From Girardia tigrina (Eukaryota), in contig MQRK01188858.1 of the NCBI GenBank assembly GCA_001938485.1, forward strand, positions 75,177 to 139,176: a DNA stretch of 64,000 bases, given 5' to 3'. Below, piece by piece: positions 1,812 through 60,494 of this stretch (its first letter is position 1; each line of letters opens with the position of its first letter). A model generated the notes under the pieces. That model saw nothing but the letters and a program-made list of their open reading frames with translations, was not told the origin of the DNA and made no database searches. The position numbers and the translations under genes were made by a program.

Positions 1812-2258
1812 AGTCTACAAATGTAATCAACAAATTTAGTCTACCAGTATAAATGTCACAAGTGTGAATCATTGTACATTGGAGAGATAAATCGTCACCT
1901 CTGTACTAGAATTGCTGAACATACCCAATCAAGTAGAAAGAGCTCTATTTTAGATCACATTAAGAGCTATCATGGAACTCACCTGAGGGTAAAGGAGAGT
2001 GATTTTTGGGTTTTGATTAGTAATTTTGACTGTAACTATGAAATGATAATTACTCAAGCTCGGTTAATTAAGTTTCATAAACCTTGTTTAAACGTACAAA
2101 GTGATTTGTCCAATCATATCAGAGTTCTGATGTAAGATATGGTGACGTAATGGTCTTGAGACTTAAAATACAACAACGATTTACTTTAGTACAGAACTAA
2201 CGATGCCACAAAAGTGGTGAAACATGTTTTCAAATAAAATTTTAAATTAAAATGACTT

Positions 2259-6342: not shown

Positions 6343-6385
6343 GATTATTGTACATGTTTCATGCGTTATCATCAGTAATTATAAT
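6343..6385 (-). ncRNA. Possible degenerate PLE-type hammerhead (stem II eroded)
   Basis: Minus strand reads aatta-CTGATGA-taacgcat-GAAAC-at-GTA-caataat. Core and ACATGT palindrome are intact; stem II does not pair. Confidence 0.35.
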
Positions 6386-12480: not shown

Positions 12481-12666
12481 CATGCTGAGTGTGATATAAC
12501 CCACCGGTGGGTCGTTGCTGATTTCCATCTGCAAAAATGGTAATTATATCAACTTTTAGAGTTCTTTTAAATATTCTGTATTATTTTTATAAATGACCCA
12601 TGGGTCGTTTCGCAGCAGATGTAAATCAGCAACGACCCACCGATGGGTCGTATCGCACTCAACGTG
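12481..12666. mobile_element. piggyBac-like palindromic MITE
   Basis: TTAA on both sides and about 50-bp TIRs (catgctgagtgtgat..acccaccggtgggtcgttgctgattt / aaatcagcaacgacccac..atcgcactcaacgtg). Confidence 0.8.
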
Positions 12667-15102: not shown

Positions 15103-16599
15103 TAGTCTGAATTTACATCATTTAGCATTAAATTTTTTGTTAATTTTTTTTACTTATTTTTAATAACATTCTACCTTAGCTCAAGCATTAAGTTCATGTA
15201 ATCACAATTTATGATAACAAAAGCTACTTAATATAATAAATATATCAACATATTTCGATTTACTTCATTTTGAGATTGGACATCCATCAAATTTATGGAT
15301 TCCGTTAAACAAGTGTTGCGTAACTTTCCCCCAGTTTCCGTTATGTCTAGAATAATATTTAATGTTGAATATATTTTATTTAATAATGTACCCAGATTTT
15401 CAAATTTCTTTCTTTTTAATTTTTATTATAGAATTGATAATTTGTTCATGTGATTTTAATTAAGACAAACCTATACAATAATTATAACCACTTAGTGTTA
15501 AATAAGTAAATATTGTAAATTTGAACCCCTATTCAATGTTTTCAACGGATTATTAGTCAATCTGACTTAAAAATGTCAAAAAAACAAATATTTTTGACAG
15601 GCTAACAGTCAGATATCTTTATCTTTGGTGAGAATTACTGTTTTGATTAATATGCAGATAAATAATTTCATTGGGTCGTCTTCACTATTATAAAGTCCAA
15701 TGTAATCTCATCCGATTGGATAAAACGATAAGGACAATTATACACTCTCGATGAAGACATCTTTTTTATATGATGAAGTGAAATTAAACTATCAGCCAAA
15801 CGATTCTCACTCAATGTAATTGTATCTTAACTGGGCAGCATCGTCCATCGTAGCAACTCTGCTCCAAGGAACTAGATTTTACTTTTCATCCTCCTGAAGA
15901 TCATAATATAAACATAGCGCCTGGAAGACATAACTTCCACCTTATCACAATCACTTTTGTCATAACCAGTTGTTTGTCATTTATTTCAAGAAAAATATTT
16001 ATTCTTTCTTTGTGGAATTGTATAAAGGAATACATGATCAAATTCACTGTAACAATAAATTATGTACTTAACAATTTTTTGACTCAATTTTAGTCACATA
16101 ATTTTAATATAGGACATTCATTCGTTTCTCTTACAAACAATTTAATAAATCATTCGTTTGATTTTTTTTCCATTGCTAATGGCTTTTTAAATCACAATGT
16201 TTTATTTTCAATATATTTTTAATATATTATTACATTTAACAAAGTAATAAAATAATGAAAATATATTTCCATGCACCAATACTAATATATTTTTAGGGCT
16301 ATAATAAATACTCATAAGTTTCAAGATTTTATTAAATTTCTCAATGGTTGTCGAATCTTGGGAATTTTAGTTAATATTTACGTAAAAAGTAACGAATAAA
16401 AGTATTATTTTGAAAAAATAATTTTGTTAAAGGTTTCTTAAGAAATTGATTATCGTACATGTTTCAGGATTCTCTATTTCATCATCAAAAATTATAATTT
16501 AATATTTGTTAGTTTTAATGTGGGATTTAGGGAATAATTTTTTTAATATATTTTAATTATTGAAAATATTGTTGGATAATAATGACAAAATGTTTTTAA

Positions 16600-21502: not shown

Positions 21503-21824
21503 ATTTACACCGAGTGCTGCCCATGCAGCTAGATATAAAAGTCCCGGTAAATCAGACACGTTTCCCCCTGATAAACACGCGGATCCTCAGTTACCGAATT
21601 ATCAATCCATCAATACCCCTGATTCCAAGCATCAGACTTACACTCCAGCAGAATCCCAAATGGAATTCCCTTACTGCAATGATCAGGCTATTATTGATTC
21701 TACAAAACGTGTTATAGAATGGCAGAAAAAGAACGCTGATGTTATATCAAAAGAAAGTAAACAAAATGAAAAAATCTATCAACCAATTCATCCACAAGTC
21801 AATAATGATGCTCGAATTCAAAAA
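21503..21824 (+). CDS. PARD3: Probable Par-3 C-terminal-region exon (may instead read through to the stop at 21866)
   Basis: Acceptor tttag|a is phase-compatible with the 6205 donor (gc+a). Open hydrophilic frame FTPSAAHAARYKSPG...KRVIEWQKKN...RIQK. Candidate donor AAA|gtaaat. Confidence 0.7.
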
Positions 21825-35108: not shown

Positions 35109-36840
35109 TCAATTTTTGTCCAAACTCTCATATTGAAATTTTCTCTCAGACTTCTCCCATTCTACGGTACACGTATTCATCACATTCATAAGTTCCTTCA
35201 TTTTATTCTCGTAATCCTTTATTGACATGTCACTGTTTTTCGGAAGCCAATCAGTTGTTTCCCGGACGGTTTTAATAATTTTTGAATCGAAATAATTTAT
35301 GTAATATTGCAAAAAAATTTTTAGATTCGTATTTTCTTTTTCTGACGATTTCCTCTTCTTTTAAATTTGAGGCCTTCTTGGCCTATATTTCGATATTTTT
35401 TTTCAAAAACTGACCTTCCGGGATAGTATCTTCTTTAAATTGTCTACTGAAACTTTTGAAATTCCATTTATATCAATGACGAATGACACGTCAAGTTTAT
35501 CAACTCTTGAGTCATAATTTTCGTCGGTCAAATCGAAATTGAACAAGAGCTTCTCAATATTTCGGTTTTTCTCAGTCTCGTAAACCTGAATTGAAACTTC
35601 GCTCGGTCATTCCATGACTATCGTTGTTGGAATTATTGTATTCCACTCGATTTATTAACGCTTAGTGTAAAAGGAGCAACGTCAACAAGTTCTAAATTTT
35701 GCACCTTTCCCAACAATTTCCCCGTCAGTAACGTCGCACCATATGTGTCCGCCTCTGAATGGAGCAACTGAGGTTCATAACCGAATAGCATACCGAGCTA
35801 ATGTTTAATTTTCGACATTTCACTGGATCCGCCAATCAATAAAACATTATCAAGCATACTCGGGTTTAAATTAGAATCGTTCATATCATTTGTCACTAGA
35901 TCTAGTGAATAATTGAACAGATCGCAATTTATGTCTTCAAAGTCCATCCGAGTAAACATCTGATTGAATTGGATTCCATTATCAAATATGACATTGATTT
36001 TGGTAGTATTAATCGAACTGAGCGTCCGTTTTACTCGCTCGGCAGCCCTCCACAAATTCAACATATTCCACTTATTATTTCTGATGTTCATATCATGTTT
36101 CTCATTTATCTGTTTGATGAAATAATACACAATATTATTGACAAAAGCGTCCCCTCCAAATTGTGTGGATCCGGCTATGGCTTTCACATTAAAGACGTTG
36201 TCTTGAACTGACACAAGCGAAACGTTGCAAGTGCCTCCTCTCATATCAAATAAGAGTACATTTCTCTCTTCTTCGATGTGTTTGTCGTAGCCATATGTGA
36301 TTGTCGCCACCGTGCTGCAATTGATGAGCTGCAGTACATGTAACCCGCATATCACAGCAGAATCTTTGATCGCCTGTCTTTGGCGATTATTGAAAGACGT
36401 GGGTACAGTAATCATCACGTCTTTCACGGAGTATTTTCACAAGTATTGATCATGTGTGGACCGGGCTCATTGAAAGTATTGAATGGTTAAATTCTCTACC
36501 AAATAAAATCTTCACATCTAAGAGAAAGATGAAAAATAAATCAGTATGAAATAATAAATTACTGCAGATGATTTGTAATGGTTTATGGCCGCTAGAAACT
36601 CGGCATCTTCTCCAATTCATCTATAGGTGTTTGTGAATTTAACAATACTTGGGGTTCTTTGTTTATGCGTGTTTCTGTATATTATTTCCACTTTCCCATT
36701 TCTAAAAACACCTACAGATGTGTTCATAGTTCCCAAGTCGATTCCAATAGCGTTTGCCTAAGAAATTAAAATGGTTATTAATAATCTTCAAATTTTGTTA
36801 ACATACTTTATTTTTCTTGGAGCTATAATTTTACAATGAG
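35109..36840 (-). pseudogene. HSP70: Divergent intron-containing HSP70 pseudogene
   Basis: [73 protein letters not shown] motifs. In-frame stops, frameshifts and deletions. Short GT-AG introns at 36758-36806 and 36518-36562. Confidence 0.9.
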
Positions 36841-46809: not shown

Positions 46810-47139
46810 AAAAAATAGATAATGTTTATTTTTATGACACAATCAAATAATTCGCGTCTAAAATTAATTACACTGATTGATTTAAACAATCTCAGGAGTT
46901 TTTATATATTCAGGATCCTTTGATATAANNNNNNNNNNNNNNNNNNNNNNNNNNNNNNNNNNNNNNNNNNNNNNNNNNATGACACAATCAAATAATTCGC
47001 GTCTAAAATTAATTACACTGATTGATTTAAACAATCTCAGGAGTTTTTATATATTCAGGATCCTTTGATATAATATGATATTGCTATAAATAATTATTTA
47101 TTTTAATTTATAAATATATAGTTATTAATTATTCTCACA
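46810..47139 (-). repeat. 3' LTR of the Gypsy element (interrupted by a gap; about 94 bp duplicated across the gap)
   Basis: Starts TGTGAGAAT right after the PPT. The match to the 5' LTR stops at aaaaaatagat, about 46810. Confidence 0.85.
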
Positions 47140-48416
47140 CCCCCTGCTTTAAAAGACTTTAGCCATTCTATATTTCTATAGATTACTCGCCCGGTTTTAT
47201 TTTTCAGTTCGAAGCTTCTATCATATATTCTGCGACTAATTTGTAATGGTCCTTCATATCTATCAGATCCTTTCTGACGATTTTCAACTTTAACTAACAC
47301 TAAATCTCCTTCCTTAAATTCACGTTTCTGTGCTTCCACTGGTAATGCGTTTGACTCAAGCATTTTAACTTGTTCAATAATTTTCCTGTTATTCAATTCA
47401 TAGTGACGTGATCCATCTAATGTTATACGCTTCCCGATAATAACTTCGGCCGGACTAAACCCAGTTGAACTTTGTCTTGAAGCGTTTATGCTAAATTCAA
47501 TCTCTGGTAAAATATCTACCCAATTATTTCTTCCTTCAACCTTTAATGATGCATTCAAGAAATCCCGGATGGTGCGGAATTGGCGCTCTATCATGCCATT
47601 TGTATTGTGATAGTAAGGACTTGAATATTGTATATCAATTAACATGGATTTTGTAAATTCAAGAAACGAGCGCGACTCGAAAACCTTTCCTCGGTCCACA
47701 TGAATGCAAACCGGAGCTCTGAACCTAAATATCCATTGTCGTAATATTGTCTGTATTGTTGTGGTCTCATCTTGATTACTGACAGCCGTTAAACTAATAT
47801 ATCTACTAAATCTATCTATGATTCCTAAGATATATTTCTTTCCTTTTATTATCGGCATCGGTCCGCAAAAATCAATATAAATGTCATCAAACGGTCTTTT
47901 CAATGTAAGAGTCTTTGTTTCTTCTTTAGTTATTCCTGTGTAAGTTTTCGCTGTCTGACAAGCAATGCAGCTTTCTATTTCTATTTTAACTTGTTCCATG
48001 AAATCTTCCATATCATATTCATTTCGCATAAATGAATACGTTTTTATATATCCCGCATGACATAAGTATCTATGGAAAAAGATTATACAAGCATGTCGTT
48101 CATTTTTTGGAATCCAAATCTTGTCATTTAGGGTTCTGACACATCCTTTGGATAATTTGAATGTTTGACAAGTATTGTTCTTTATTTGTTCAATAATTTC
48201 CATAATTTCCGTGCTCTTCTGTTGCCATGGTATGGGAGATCTCTCTTCATCTATTGCTAACATTCTCACTTTCTGTTTTGATAATTTTGGCTGCTCGTGT
48301 TGAATCATACACTGTGAACATACTGTACATTCATTCCGAGACAACGCATCTGCATTTTGATGTATTCCTCCTTTTCTATATTCTAATTTCATATCTAGAC
48401 TGCTTAAATAATTCAT
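47103..48416 (-). CDS. pol: Gypsy integrase region (open frame)
   Basis: H-H-C-C zinc finger, IDFCGP, VDRGKVF, NGMIER and RYEGP (GPY/F) motifs. Confidence 0.95.
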   Translation of the reverse strand: MNYLSSLDMKLEYRKGGIHQNADALSRNECTVCSQCMIQHEQPKLSKQKVRMLAIDEERSPIPWQQKSTEIMEIIEQIKNNTCQTFKLSKGCVRTLNDKIWIPKNERHACIIFFHRYLCHAGYIKTYSFMRNEYDMEDFMEQVKIEIESCIACQTAKTYTGITKEETKTLTLKRPFDDIYIDFCGPMPIIKGKKYILGIIDRFSRYISLTAVSNQDETTTIQTILRQWIFRFRAPVCIHVDRGKVFESRSFLEFTKSMLIDIQYSSPYYHNTNGMIERQFRTIRDFLNASLKVEGRNNWVDILPEIEFSINASRQSSTGFSPAEVIIGKRITLDGSRHYELNNRKIIEQVKMLESNALPVEAQKREFKEGDLVLVKVENRQKGSDRYEGPLQISRRIYDRSFELKNKTGRVIYRNIEWLKSFKAGGVRIINNYIFIN

Positions 48417-48419
48417 CCA

Positions 48420-50208
48420 GTTTTGAAATTATGGAGTAATTGCTTTTCTTGTTGTCATCATAAAAACAATTGCCTTGTGATCCGTTCTCAGTTTAAAATG
48501 TGCAACGTAAAGATAATGTTTAAAATATTGAGTAAAATGAAATATTGCTAACAATTCTTTCCTTGTTATACAATAACCTATTTCATGTTTCGACATCGAC
48601 CTTGATCCATACGCGATGACTCGCTCTTCACCTTTGTCATCTAACTGAGACAGAACCGCACCAATTGTATCGAAAGATGCATCTGTATCTAAAATAAACT
48701 TCTTTTTAAAATTTGGATAGCATAATACAGGGCAGTTGTCATGGCTGTTTTTAACTTTTTAAAAGCCTCTGAATCAGATACCTTCCAATAAAGTCTATTT
48801 TTAGAACTTCCACACATTGCTTCCAACGGTTTTGCTAGTTTTGAATAATCTACAATGAACTTCCTATAATAATTACACAGTCCTAAAAAATTGCGCAATT
48901 TTTTAACACATTTTGGTTGTTCAAAATCTACTATTGTCTGGATTTTCTCAGGATCCGTTTTGATTTCTTCTCTATTTACAATATGTCCAAGAAAACGCAT
49001 CTCCTTCTGGAAAAATTAACATTTTTCTGGGTTAATTCTTAGGCCTACTGATTGAATTCTCGAAAATAACCGGTCCAATCTTTTTAAATGCTCGTCTTCT
49101 GTTTCTGAAAAAAATCAACACGTCATCGAGATATACCACTGCCTCTTTCCATAGCATATCCTTCAATATTTTATTCATTAATTTTTGGAAAGTAGGCAGT
49201 GCTGCTGCTATGCCGAATGGCATTCTTGTAAAACAAAATTGTCCGGTCCTTGTAGAAAAAGCCGTTTTCATCTTTGAAGATTTTTCCAACTCCACCTGGA
49301 AATATGCATTACCCAGATCTATGGAACTAAACCACTTCCATTCCAATTAAAGAATCCAACATCTCATCAACATTTGGAATAGGGAAAGCTGGTCTTTCAG
49401 TTACTTGATTTAGGAGCCGAAAATCTAAACACAAACGGATTTCCTTTTTCTCCTTTTTCCACATACAAACCATTGGTGTGTTCCAAGGGGAAGAACATTT
49501 TTCTATTATTCCATGTCTTTCTAAATTAAATATTGCTTTCTCGATGTGATGTTCCAAATGTGCTGGCTGTCTACGAGGCTTCTGTAAAATTGGCTCACTA
49601 AATGTTTTTATTTCATGTCTGGTTAATGTAGTTTTCCCGATATCCCATTTTCCAGCCATAAAAATGTTCTTGTACTTATCTATACATCTATATAAATTTG
49701 TACCATTACGTAGATTTAATGTTTCTTTGGCTTTCAAAAATCTGTCTTTGTCTGTATATATAAGTTTATCGATATATGGATCTAAAGCATATATTTCCGC
49801 ACACACTATATCAGGTGTAAATGATTCTTGTTTTATATTTTTGGCATCAAATCACCACCTTAAATCGAGACCTAAAGATCAAATTAATTCAATTCCGAAG
49901 ATTATAGATGGAAAAACTGTTTTCGCAATATAAAAGACTGGATATAGTGTTAAATTTTAAAATTTTACCTTTTTACATGTACCACTCATCTCCATCCCAC
50001 AGCCATTTGCACATACTACTGATGTTACAGTGTGCTTACTCATCGGTACTTGTAATTGTTTAATAGTATTTTCATCTATTACATTAATAGGGGCCCCGGT
50101 GTACAATAAACAATTCATTTTGATACACCCTATAACTGTCAACATACTCGGTCTTCCATTAAAAATCTCATTGTCTATTTTACCTTCTGCATCCATAACA
50201 AAATCCAT
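48420..50208 (-). pseudogene. pol: Gypsy protease, reverse transcriptase and RNase H (frameshifted)
   Basis: LLYTGA (decayed DTGA), SPWNTP, RLCLDFRLLN, MPFG, YLDD, FLGH, DTDASFDTIGAVLSQ. Confidence 0.95.
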
Positions 50209-50591: not shown

Positions 50592-51490
50592 TTATCTTTT
50601 TTCGTCTTTCTTGAAGCATTGATATCCGAGGTGACCTTGAGCTCCACACACTGAACATTTTAAATATGGACACTCACTTCTAACGTGTCCAGACCCTCTA
50701 CATCCAAAACAACTTTTCGAATTTTCCGGACATGTACGACAAATATGTCCCAACTTTTTGCATCCATAACACATCACATTTGAATAATCCATGTTTCCTG
50801 TTTGTTGTCTCGAATATCCCGTCATTGTCCGTCTGTTATAGTCAATGGTTTGAATATTTCTTCGTTGATGTTGTTGTTGAAAATTATTTGTGAATGCCGT
50901 TCGTTCTTTCAATGTATCGGCATATGTTTTTCGTCTGTAGATATTGGCNACTTCAACTGCTTGGATTTCTGTTTTAATAATATCCATCTTCTCTATAACT
51001 GCTTTGATTGAATCTTGAGATTTAGCTTCTTGAAGATAAATTTGAGTTTTGACACTGACATCTTCTATACAGTGAGTTAAAAATTTGCCATTAGCTCCGG
51101 TTTATTCCATTTGTGGCATAAAACTTTATCTACCATCTTCTCAATTTTGTTGACATATGAATTTGCTGTTTCGGTTCCTTTTCAGTAATTCATGAGCTTC
51201 TGCAAATCTTGAATTAATGATGTTGGACGTTTGAATGCCTTCCGTAACCGATCCGCGAAATTCATGAATTTCTCATCTACTGCTTCATAAGTAGATATTA
51301 AATCTTTATTGATGAATGCTTTGACGAATAACGATTGAATTCCTTCCTGAATTTGCGAAACTTGAAAGAACCTGTTGCAGTCGGCAATGAACTGCTCCAA
51401 ATCATTGTGTCCATCGAATATTGTTGGCGCCAAATTGTTGATAACATTTGGCATGGTCGCCATATAAGAATTTTCCATAATAAAAGTCAA
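50592..51490 (-). pseudogene. gag: Gypsy gag with three CCHC zinc knuckles (interrupted)
   Basis: PTIFDGHNDLEQFI N-terminus; CYGCKKLGHICRTC, CFGCRGSGHVRSEC, CSVCGAQGHLGYQC. Confidence 0.9.
51452..51462 (-). promoter_or_regulatory. Primer-binding site (probably tRNA-Arg)
   Basis: TGGCGACCATG immediately inside the 5' LTR. The tRNA identity is inferred from typical tRNA-Arg 3' ends. Confidence 0.7.
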
Positions 51491-58480: not shown

Positions 58481-59533
58481 TATTCTAGTCAAATCCCGAT
58501 GTTTCTTTACCTTATTGTTAAATCATCAGACTTAAATCGCTGATTAAAATGTTTTAATATTATTATATTTTGTTTTTATATCATTAAATTATTTAATTAA
58601 TTCTTTCAACAAATTTTTATTTTTAAAAATTGATTTATTATTATTTTAAGGACAAAAATATCAAAACGGTAAAATTCCAGAAATTAAAGCTTATTTAATC
58701 AGTTAAAATAATATATTAAATTAATTTTTTTCACAAAAAAATGTTTAAAATTTCATTTACAAATTATAACTTTTCGCTTTAATAAACTCGCTTAAAATAT
58801 ACTTCTAAAAAAAATAAATAAATAATTGTATAACATTATAAAAATTTCAATAATTCTTTAAATGTTTAATCATTTAACGTTTAACATTTCAATTAATATT
58901 TTCATTAAAGGTATATTTTATCAAAATGGAAAAATAATAAATATTATTTATATTTTTATGAACAGAAATGGGAATTCTATTAACGTACAAGAAACTGTTT
59001 CAATCAATTTTCTTCTTTCAAAAATTCTTTTTATCATGAAGAAAGTGATGGAAGAAAAGCGTTTTGTTGTGAAAGACATTTTAACCTTCTGCTGTGTATT
59101 CTCTATGTGAATTAATGGAAAGATAAACTCACTCAAAATAGAAAATTTGCTAAAGAAAATAGATTTATTCTCGATGTAAATCATTAATGATAATTATACA
59201 TTTTTGATTTCTATTACGTTTATCTTAAAATAATTTTAATTAACAATTTTTGATGCAATCTTTCCTCTTCTAATTTTCATAAATTAAGTGATAATTAAAT
59301 CAAATAATTTAAGAAATGTATGTCGTATTTTCCATCAAGGCAGATTAATTAAAATAATTAAAGGTTTTTGAACTGTAAAGATGACAAAAAAAGCTGAAAA
59401 TGGAATGTAAAATATGTTTCTTTAATAATACTTCCAATTATATTATCTTCAAATAGCAAAACATAATTAATATTGTTAGTTCTTTTATAAAAGAAAATTC
59501 GGTTTTATAATGCAAAAATTATATATATATATA

Positions 59534-60271
59534 NNNNNNNNNNNNNNNNNNNNNNNNNNNNNNNNNNNNNNNNNNNNNNNNNNNNNNNNNNNNNNNNNNN
59601 NNNNNNNNNNNNNNNNNNNNNNNNNNNNNNNNNNNNNNNNNNNNNNNNNNNNNNNNNNNNNNNNNNNNNNNNNNNNNNNNNNNNNNNNNNNNNNNNNNNN
59701 NNNNNNNNNNNNNNNNNNNNNNNNNNNNNNNNNNNNNNNNNNNNNNNNNNNNNNNNNNNNNNNNNNNNNNNNNNNNNNNNNNNNNNNNNNNNNNNNNNNN
59801 NNNNNNNNNNNNNNNNNNNNNNNNNNNNNNNNNNNNNNNNNNNNNNNNNNNNNNNNNNNNNNNNNNNNNNNNNNNNNNNNNNNNNNNNNNNNNNNNNNNN
59901 NNNNNNNNNNNNNNNNNNNNNNNNNNNNNNNNNNNNNNNNNNNNNNNNNNNNNNNNNNNNNNNNNNNNNNNNNNNNNNNNNNNNNNNNNNNNNNNNNNNN
60001 NNNNNNNNNNNNNNNNNNNNNNNNNNNNNNNNNNNNNNNNNNNNNNNNNNNNNNNNNNNNNNNNNNNNNNNNNNNNNNNNNNNNNNNNNNNNNNNNNNNN
60101 NNNNNNNNNNNNNNNNNNNNNNNNNNNNNNNNNNNNNNNNNNNNNNNNNNNNNNNNNNNNNNNNNNNNNNNNNNNNNNNNNNNNNNNNNNNNNNNNNNNN
60201 NNNNNNNNNNNNNNNNNNNNNNNNNNNNNNNNNNNNNNNNNNNNNNNNNNNNNNNNNNNNNNNNNNNNNNN
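59534..60271. other. Assembly gap (others at 46593-46698 and 46929-46978)
   Basis: Runs of N. Confidence 1.
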
Positions 60272-60460
60272 CATGCTTAAATGTTCAAAGTGAATTATCC
60301 AATCATATTAAAATCTTTTAATATTAAAAAAAAAAAAAAATTAATTGCGTAATAGTCAATGTGCCATATAAATGACTTGTAATTTGAAATCTTCTTCACA
60401 ACTGATGATGCCGTAATGGCGAAACATGTTTTGGGAAATAAAAAACTTTTAAAATGGCGT

Positions 60461-60490
<30 letters not shown>
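60272..60490 (+). mobile_element. 3' end of a second Penelope-like element of the same family (5' part lost in the assembly gap)
   Basis: Translates CLNVQSELSNHIKIF*, matching CLNVQSDLSNHIRVLM* of the 1872 ORF. Same downstream order: hammerhead, AATAAA, ttaaaatg.c.tta, (TA)n. A TA tract also precedes the gap at 59520. Confidence 0.85.
60395..60437 (+). ncRNA. Minimal type I hammerhead ribozyme with intact catalytic core
   Basis: ttcacaa-CTGATGA-t-gcc(gtaat)ggc-GAAAC-at-GTT-ttgggaa. Stem I pairs 6/7, stem II is 3 bp, stem III is the palindrome AACATGTT, cleavage triplet is GUU. Confidence 0.85.

Positions 60491-60494
<4 letters not shown>

Follow-up and report, generated by a model that had tools for sequence, protein, structure and literature searches.

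The 64,000-nucleotide stretch of the Girardia tigrina genome analysed here (the window) contains at 60395-60437 a short motif that a first-pass annotation had described as a complete minimal hammerhead ribozyme in a TA-associated Penelope family, with GUU as its cleavage triplet. GUU is cleaved several-fold more slowly than GUC. The locus raises the question of whether the U preceding the predicted cut (position 17) is decay, a slow site fixed as a tuned feature, as had been proposed, or simply one of several permitted bases. The evidence points with good confidence to the last answer: the motif is a minimal type I hammerhead of a Penelope-like element (PLE), likely of the Penelope/Poseidon clade, predicted to cleave weakly after GUU, likely only as a dimer or helped by the element's protein, and its U17 likely descends from the family's master copy as one of three mutually replaceable bases (A, C, U), rather than being a tuned brake.

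The hammerhead, its element and its relatives

The core of the motif (Table 1) is intact, with C3-A9 at 60402-60408 and G12-A15.1 at 60421-60424, and the core pattern has three matches in the window, against 0.11 expected. Stem I pairs 60395-60401 with 60431-60437 (6/7 pairs, one A.G mismatch at 60398/60434) and gives a type I closure at the RNA ends; three of its pairs are constant among copies of the family, here called A, and past these 3 bp the stem is variable. Stem II has 3 bp (60410-60412 with 60418-60420), follows an extra U after A9 at 60409, and includes the G10.1-C11.1 pair (G 60410 with C 60420). Stem III is a 6-nt palindrome (60424-60429) with a 2-nt loop, so that no stable helix III is possible in a monomer; the palindrome reported initially is thus present, although its 8-nt version counted A14 and U17, neither of which pairs in the active fold. 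The GUU at 60428-60430 is an NUH triplet. A scan of the window with Rfam covariance models gave no hammerhead among four weak matches (E up to 1). The described anatomy, a complete minimal hammerhead with GUU in a TA-associated Penelope family, is confirmed at this position, and the motif is a genuine hammerhead-type RNA motif, at the 3′ end of a very abundant retrotransposon, for which weak self-cleavage is predicted.

Table 1. Features of the window that bear on the two hammerhead copies
Feature	Position	Strand	Basis
Minimal type I hammerhead, family A	60395-60437	+	Sequence, core-pattern scan, fold prediction
GUU triplet (U17 = 60430), predicted cut 60430/60431	60428-60430	+	Sequence, standard hammerhead numbering
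10-nt self-complementary stretch, formed only when position 17 is U, reaching into core and stem I	60422-60431	+	Fold prediction
Last 15 codons and stop (60319-60321) of GIY-YIG endonuclease frame	60272-60321	+	Translation; same C-terminus in family copies L035 and L023
AATAAA, 6 nt past predicted cut, candidate poly(A) signal in AT-rich context	60437-60442	+	Sequence
(TA)n run at 3′ junction, 39 nt past U17	60470-60493	+	Sequence, family copies
(TA)n run before gap, likely 5′ flank of same insertion	59520-59533	.	Deduced; junction hidden by gap
Family B hammerhead copy, A for G5 at 2199, 5-bp stem II, U17 at 2228, likely inactive	2194-2231	+	Sequence; other family B copies keep G5
5′-truncated GIY-YIG frame, 102 aa, family B	1827-2135	+	Translation; between (TA)n runs 1772-1807 and 2262-2287

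The hammerhead had been placed directly after the endonuclease stop codon, which actually lies 80 nt upstream of C3. The remainder of the endonuclease frame is hidden by an assembly gap (59534-60271). The endonuclease end of family A (copy L035) is homologous to that of family B, and AATAAA is found at the equivalent place in families B-F too. The window has a GC content of 28%, and the genome searched comprises 1.43 Gb in 255,254 contigs. In this fragmented assembly, the nine genomic stretches that were fetched yielded no full-length element, nor any family A element flanked by a repeat on both sides; long open frames near copies of the motif are mostly assembly gaps, and inverted pairs and short tandems of copies are present. 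An intron and a frame start downstream of the hammerhead, considered for two copies (L183 and L041), were dropped, as the shared sequence may be a flanking repeat. Four of 15 listed sequencing runs, all of contig type, were compared with the window: pieces of the family occur in X1, X11 and X13, not in X5 (contigs cannot reveal RNA ends or prove transcription), and none of these four runs lists an alternative letter at 60430.

The copy at 2194-2231 had been regarded as a sister of the first. It does carry GUU; it belongs, however, to a separate family (B), and its core is damaged (G5 to A), which is why the core-pattern scan missed it. It sits 3′ of the endonuclease fragment. Its stem II had suggested covariation with that of the 60395 copy. 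There is no compensatory change between the two, because the first three pairs are the same in A and B, with two more added in B; at 2218 the C of family B has been replaced by U on one side of the stem only. The other copies of that family retain G5, and all five pairs of their stem II are formed. Judged from the aligned stems, the difference is extension plus decay. A longer family B copy (L084) has a 400-aa frame with matches to RVT_1 (E 1e-08) and then GIY-YIG (E 0.00015; its 22.4 bits are slightly below the curated cut-off of 22.6).

Several further features of the window can be mentioned. A PDZ-domain frame (2325-2849, + strand, Pfam E 7.3e-11) begins about 40 nt past the TA run of the family B copy, which likely lies in an intron of a PDZ-domain gene. 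On the minus strand there are an Hsp70 fragment of 212 aa (35798-36436, Pfam E 2.2e-55) and a broken element of LTR-retrotransposon type, with an integrase core and zinc-binding domain (47103-48428) and a zinc knuckle (50592-51101). Hammerhead-like core matches with poor stems occur at 6356-6375 (-), near 16465 (-), and at 21564 (-) and 22275 (+), and are possibly decayed copies of other families or chance. An inverted repeat at 12507-12640, with arms of about 26 nt and a weak, sub-threshold match to a microRNA model in the Rfam scan, is possibly a small DNA transposon.

The order of reverse transcriptase (RT) and C-terminal GIY-YIG in one frame is seen in family B (L084), whereas family A is represented by its endonuclease end. 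Both L084 and the family A copy L035 have two cysteines between GIY and YIG and lack the cysteine linker (CX2-5CxxC). By the definitions of PMC8557442, these protein sequences likely place the element in the Penelope/Poseidon clade, and not in Neptune, Nematis, Hydra or Naiad; Hydra is excluded because the cysteine pair is present inside GIY-YIG and the linker is absent. In the absence of a full-length family A copy, the assignment of that family is based on its endonuclease end together with family B. With this family, Hydra-clade PLEs (Craig et al. 2021, PMC8557442) share (TA)n targets, a 3′ hammerhead and GUU, but they differ from it in that a CxCX5C linker is present in their endonucleases and the CCHH motif is missing. 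Strong (TA)n association has been described mainly for linker-bearing clades, and the linker has been proposed to direct microsatellite targeting (PMC8557442). Families A and B are strongly (TA)n-associated despite their linker-less endonuclease, and copies of different families can adjoin each other tail to tail or at a shared TA run (L018, L032).

The likeness to the metazoan PLE minimal type I hammerheads of PMC4209133 is extensive: the core, the extra base after A9, G10.1-C11.1, the short stem I, the small palindromic helix III and the NUH site (GUU included) are the same, as are the terminal-repeat place after the endonuclease and the thousands of mostly solitary truncated copies. The 3-bp stem II of family A is as in the Caenorhabditis briggsae representative, most published ones being longer (PMC4209133). 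PAc of Anolis carolinensis, a Penelope/Poseidon element, likewise has RT then GIY-YIG with two cysteines and without linker, and shares inverted and partial-tandem insertions, two 3′-end classes about 35 nt apart and copies including the uncut hammerhead; its reading frame starts inside stem II (PMC11167929). Across the planarian families, different but paired stems I and II can be made out by eye, and other families keep the palindrome with other loop bases (three different loop dinucleotides, by eye). Stem I is not paired in register in two family C copies with C17 (L036 and L048). These may be small deletion derivatives, which makes their position 17 uncertain.

Position 17 in the family, the genome and the literature

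The tally of position 17 in the family, a test set beforehand, gives GUU as the consensus, not GUC or GUA. Among the 1090 genome copies of the exact family A motif (29-nt core part), 1080 have U17; the other ten have A (eight, two of which are junctions with a TA run), C (one) and G (one). Because U17 is shared by 1080 of 1090 copies, the U at 60430 is not decay, and GUU is the state of family A. A wider pattern covering families A-D gives U17 in 2580 of 2628 matches (48 others), with none in reversed controls, and in families A and B some 98-99% of copies have U17. Post-insertion decay of a GUC, or a chance match, would thus be an extremely improbable account of this site. C-to-T decay does seem to account for some GUU matches in families that mostly have C17, but a single exact family A copy has C, and the controls are empty.

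A general hammerhead pattern has 19309 raw matches in the whole genome, a few counted twice, with U17 in 6256 and another base in 13053 (reversed controls 126 and 315, respectively). About 46 of the U17 matches listed (100 of 6256) come from families A or B, and the non-U17 matches listed (100 of 13053) have about 79 C, 18 A and 3 G. With a 2-nt loop, G17 has 202 genome matches and 31 in the reversed control. Its scarcity is partly expected from the low GC content, though C17 is the commonest state. The roughly 19,000 minimal hammerhead matches of this genome fall into at least nine families and exceed the totals reported for coelacanth (4,000) and Xenopus (9,000), which were obtained with different search patterns (PMC4209133).

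The view that GUC and GUA are the usual triplets of PLEs is not upheld by published alignments. These two triplets are the textbook choice in engineered and viroid-type hammerheads and have the highest intrinsic rates (PMC3138052). In the PLE hammerheads of PMC4209133, however, the stated consensus is NUH, and a hand count of the 56 representative metazoan motifs of its Supplementary Fig. S3 gives C17 25, U17 24, A17 6 and G17 1, GUU being the commonest triplet (GUU 15, GUC 14, GUA 3). Likewise, of the 25 distinct Hydra-clade families in File S2 of PMC8557442, 10 have GUU (hand count, one duplicate row dropped). Among the papers listed in literature searches, none is devoted to GUU in PLE hammerheads; the data are in the supplements of PMC4209133 and PMC8557442.

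Sister families E and F, which carry the same endonuclease end, provide the closest comparison. With the other motif bases fixed, position 17 in family E is U in 51, A in 35 and C in 14 of the matches listed (100 of 1211), and in family F it is A in 60, C in 34 and U in 6 of the matches listed (100 of 654); G is absent from both (0/200 among the matches listed). The tallies of these listings, like those of the genome-wide ones, were made by hand. Minimal hammerheads are strongly impaired by G17 (PMC3884650). Flanks were compared by eye in 43 copies of E and 42 of F, a non-random set picked so that every position-17 state was represented: position 17 partly tracks flanking sub-lineages, with C and U each on more than one background, and U17 of family E is tied to one background in 14 of 17 fetched copies. 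This pattern fits selection for NUH, not for U, and near-neutral repeated switching among permitted bases with G excluded would give it. The 98-99% U17 of families A and B, in contrast to the mixed E and F, is allowed by drift and not predicted by it. GUU is therefore hardly a special tuned choice, since it is common in print and since A, C or U occur within successful sister families.

Randomisation of position 17 at every insertion was also considered, and is unsupported given the near-uniform families A and B and the mostly single background of U17 in family E. Neighbouring copies of the same family are sometimes discordant at position 17 (U/C, A/C, A/U, C/A and C/U), namely inverted pairs (C17216, C28267, C42933, C50900) and a tandem (C29599), at loci L123-L127, whereas other neighbouring pairs agree (C2104, C1088, C33869, C27028, C47139). 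The discordant pairs could have arisen from an insertion that used two different template RNAs, or from independent insertions at a shared TA run.

Copy ends, predicted folds and the presumed place of cleavage

In 16 listed family A copies, the TA run starts 33-49 nt past position 17 in six, 74-77 nt in three and 19 nt in one; the other six meet a contig end, divergence or a junction with other sequence. The idea that copies end at the cut site is rejected, as this holds for only 2 of the 32 loci with a TA run within 20 nt among the matches listed (100 of 185, redundant). Inserted copies contain the uncut hammerhead, and because they continue 33-77 nt beyond the cut site, uncleaved RNA is the likely template. 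The two 3′-end classes match the 30-40 nt "tail" of the anole element, which has been explained by two internal reverse-transcription starts (PMC11167929). In that system the hammerhead requires the protein, and the main insertion substrate is unprocessed RNA (PMC11167929).

In fold predictions, the minimum is -7.3 for the monomer, against -2.8 for stems I and II, and -22.6 for the dimer, against -11.8 for the double hammerhead. The active fold thus lies above the predicted minimum, in keeping with activity that is low or needs assistance. Dimer cleavage of PLE hammerheads is reportedly the subject of Lunse et al. (RNA Biol). Dimer pairing has been proposed, and weakly shown, for a Schistosoma motif, and minimal PLE hammerheads have low activity in vitro (PMC4209133). 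Since the 2-nt loop bars helix III in a monomer, two hammerheads of one tandem transcript would here pair their 6-nt palindromes, building two active sites. As the RNA would be cut only slowly or under certain conditions, reverse transcription would mostly begin 33-77 nt downstream on uncut RNA, and an occasional cut may process tandem or read-through transcripts, parting the coding region from AATAAA.

Alternatives for U17 and what the families offer

Selection might instead have made U17 a brake in families A and B. The slower triplet and a palindrome lengthened from 6 to 10 nt would together keep the RNA locked in an inactive duplex until downstream reverse transcription has started. The near-fixation of U17 in two large related families would agree with this, as would the origin of copies from RNA uncut at its 3′ hammerhead, the higher intrinsic rates of GUC and GUA (PMC3138052) and the predicted self-duplex of a 13-nt stretch (-12.2 kcal/mol with U17, -6.0 with C17 and -6.6 with A17). 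However, U17 and C17 have equal energies when the whole 43-nt motif is folded as a dimer, and family F, in which the same stem I start would create the same 10-nt palindrome, has U17 in only 6 of 100 among the matches listed. C17 families are more numerous and likewise end past the cut site, and A and B may share U17 through one ancestral event. A selected brake is thus unlikely. To about the same small degree, position 17 might be a dial set differently by co-existing families, U17 in A and B parking the ribozyme in the inactive 10-nt duplex until the element's protein remodels it, so as to time cleavage after the start of reverse transcription.

Somewhat less probable still is that the motif no longer cleaves and is a relic or is kept for another role (a protein-binding or dimerisation signal, or part of a promoter), position 17 being then irrelevant. 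The low in vitro activity of minimal PLE hammerheads (PMC4209133) and the unfavourable predicted fold could be read this way, and for the anole element core mutants are described as without effect on insertion in vitro, with no RNA ends found at the cut site (PMC11167929). Against it, families whose stems differ still retain, by eye, the core, the palindrome and a paired stem I, and G17 is absent from the 200 matches listed for E and F, where C17 is common, as the NUH rule predicts (PMC3884650).

A hammerhead predicted to cleave weakly, with an interchangeable A, C or U at position 17, is the preferred reading. The class to which it belongs, known since 2014, gains one more family, and GUU sites are already present in its published alignment (PMC4209133). 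What this genome contributes is population evidence from a single genome, with about 19,000 pattern matches that have A, C or U at position 17, and G in about 1%. The distribution suggests that active lineages are under selection to stay able to cleave, even though it is uncut RNA that gives rise to inserted copies. With their matched natural variants, families E and F would allow the function of PLE hammerheads to be probed, and, if position 17 were indeed a dial, they would be a natural allelic series for testing the roles of the Penelope hammerhead.
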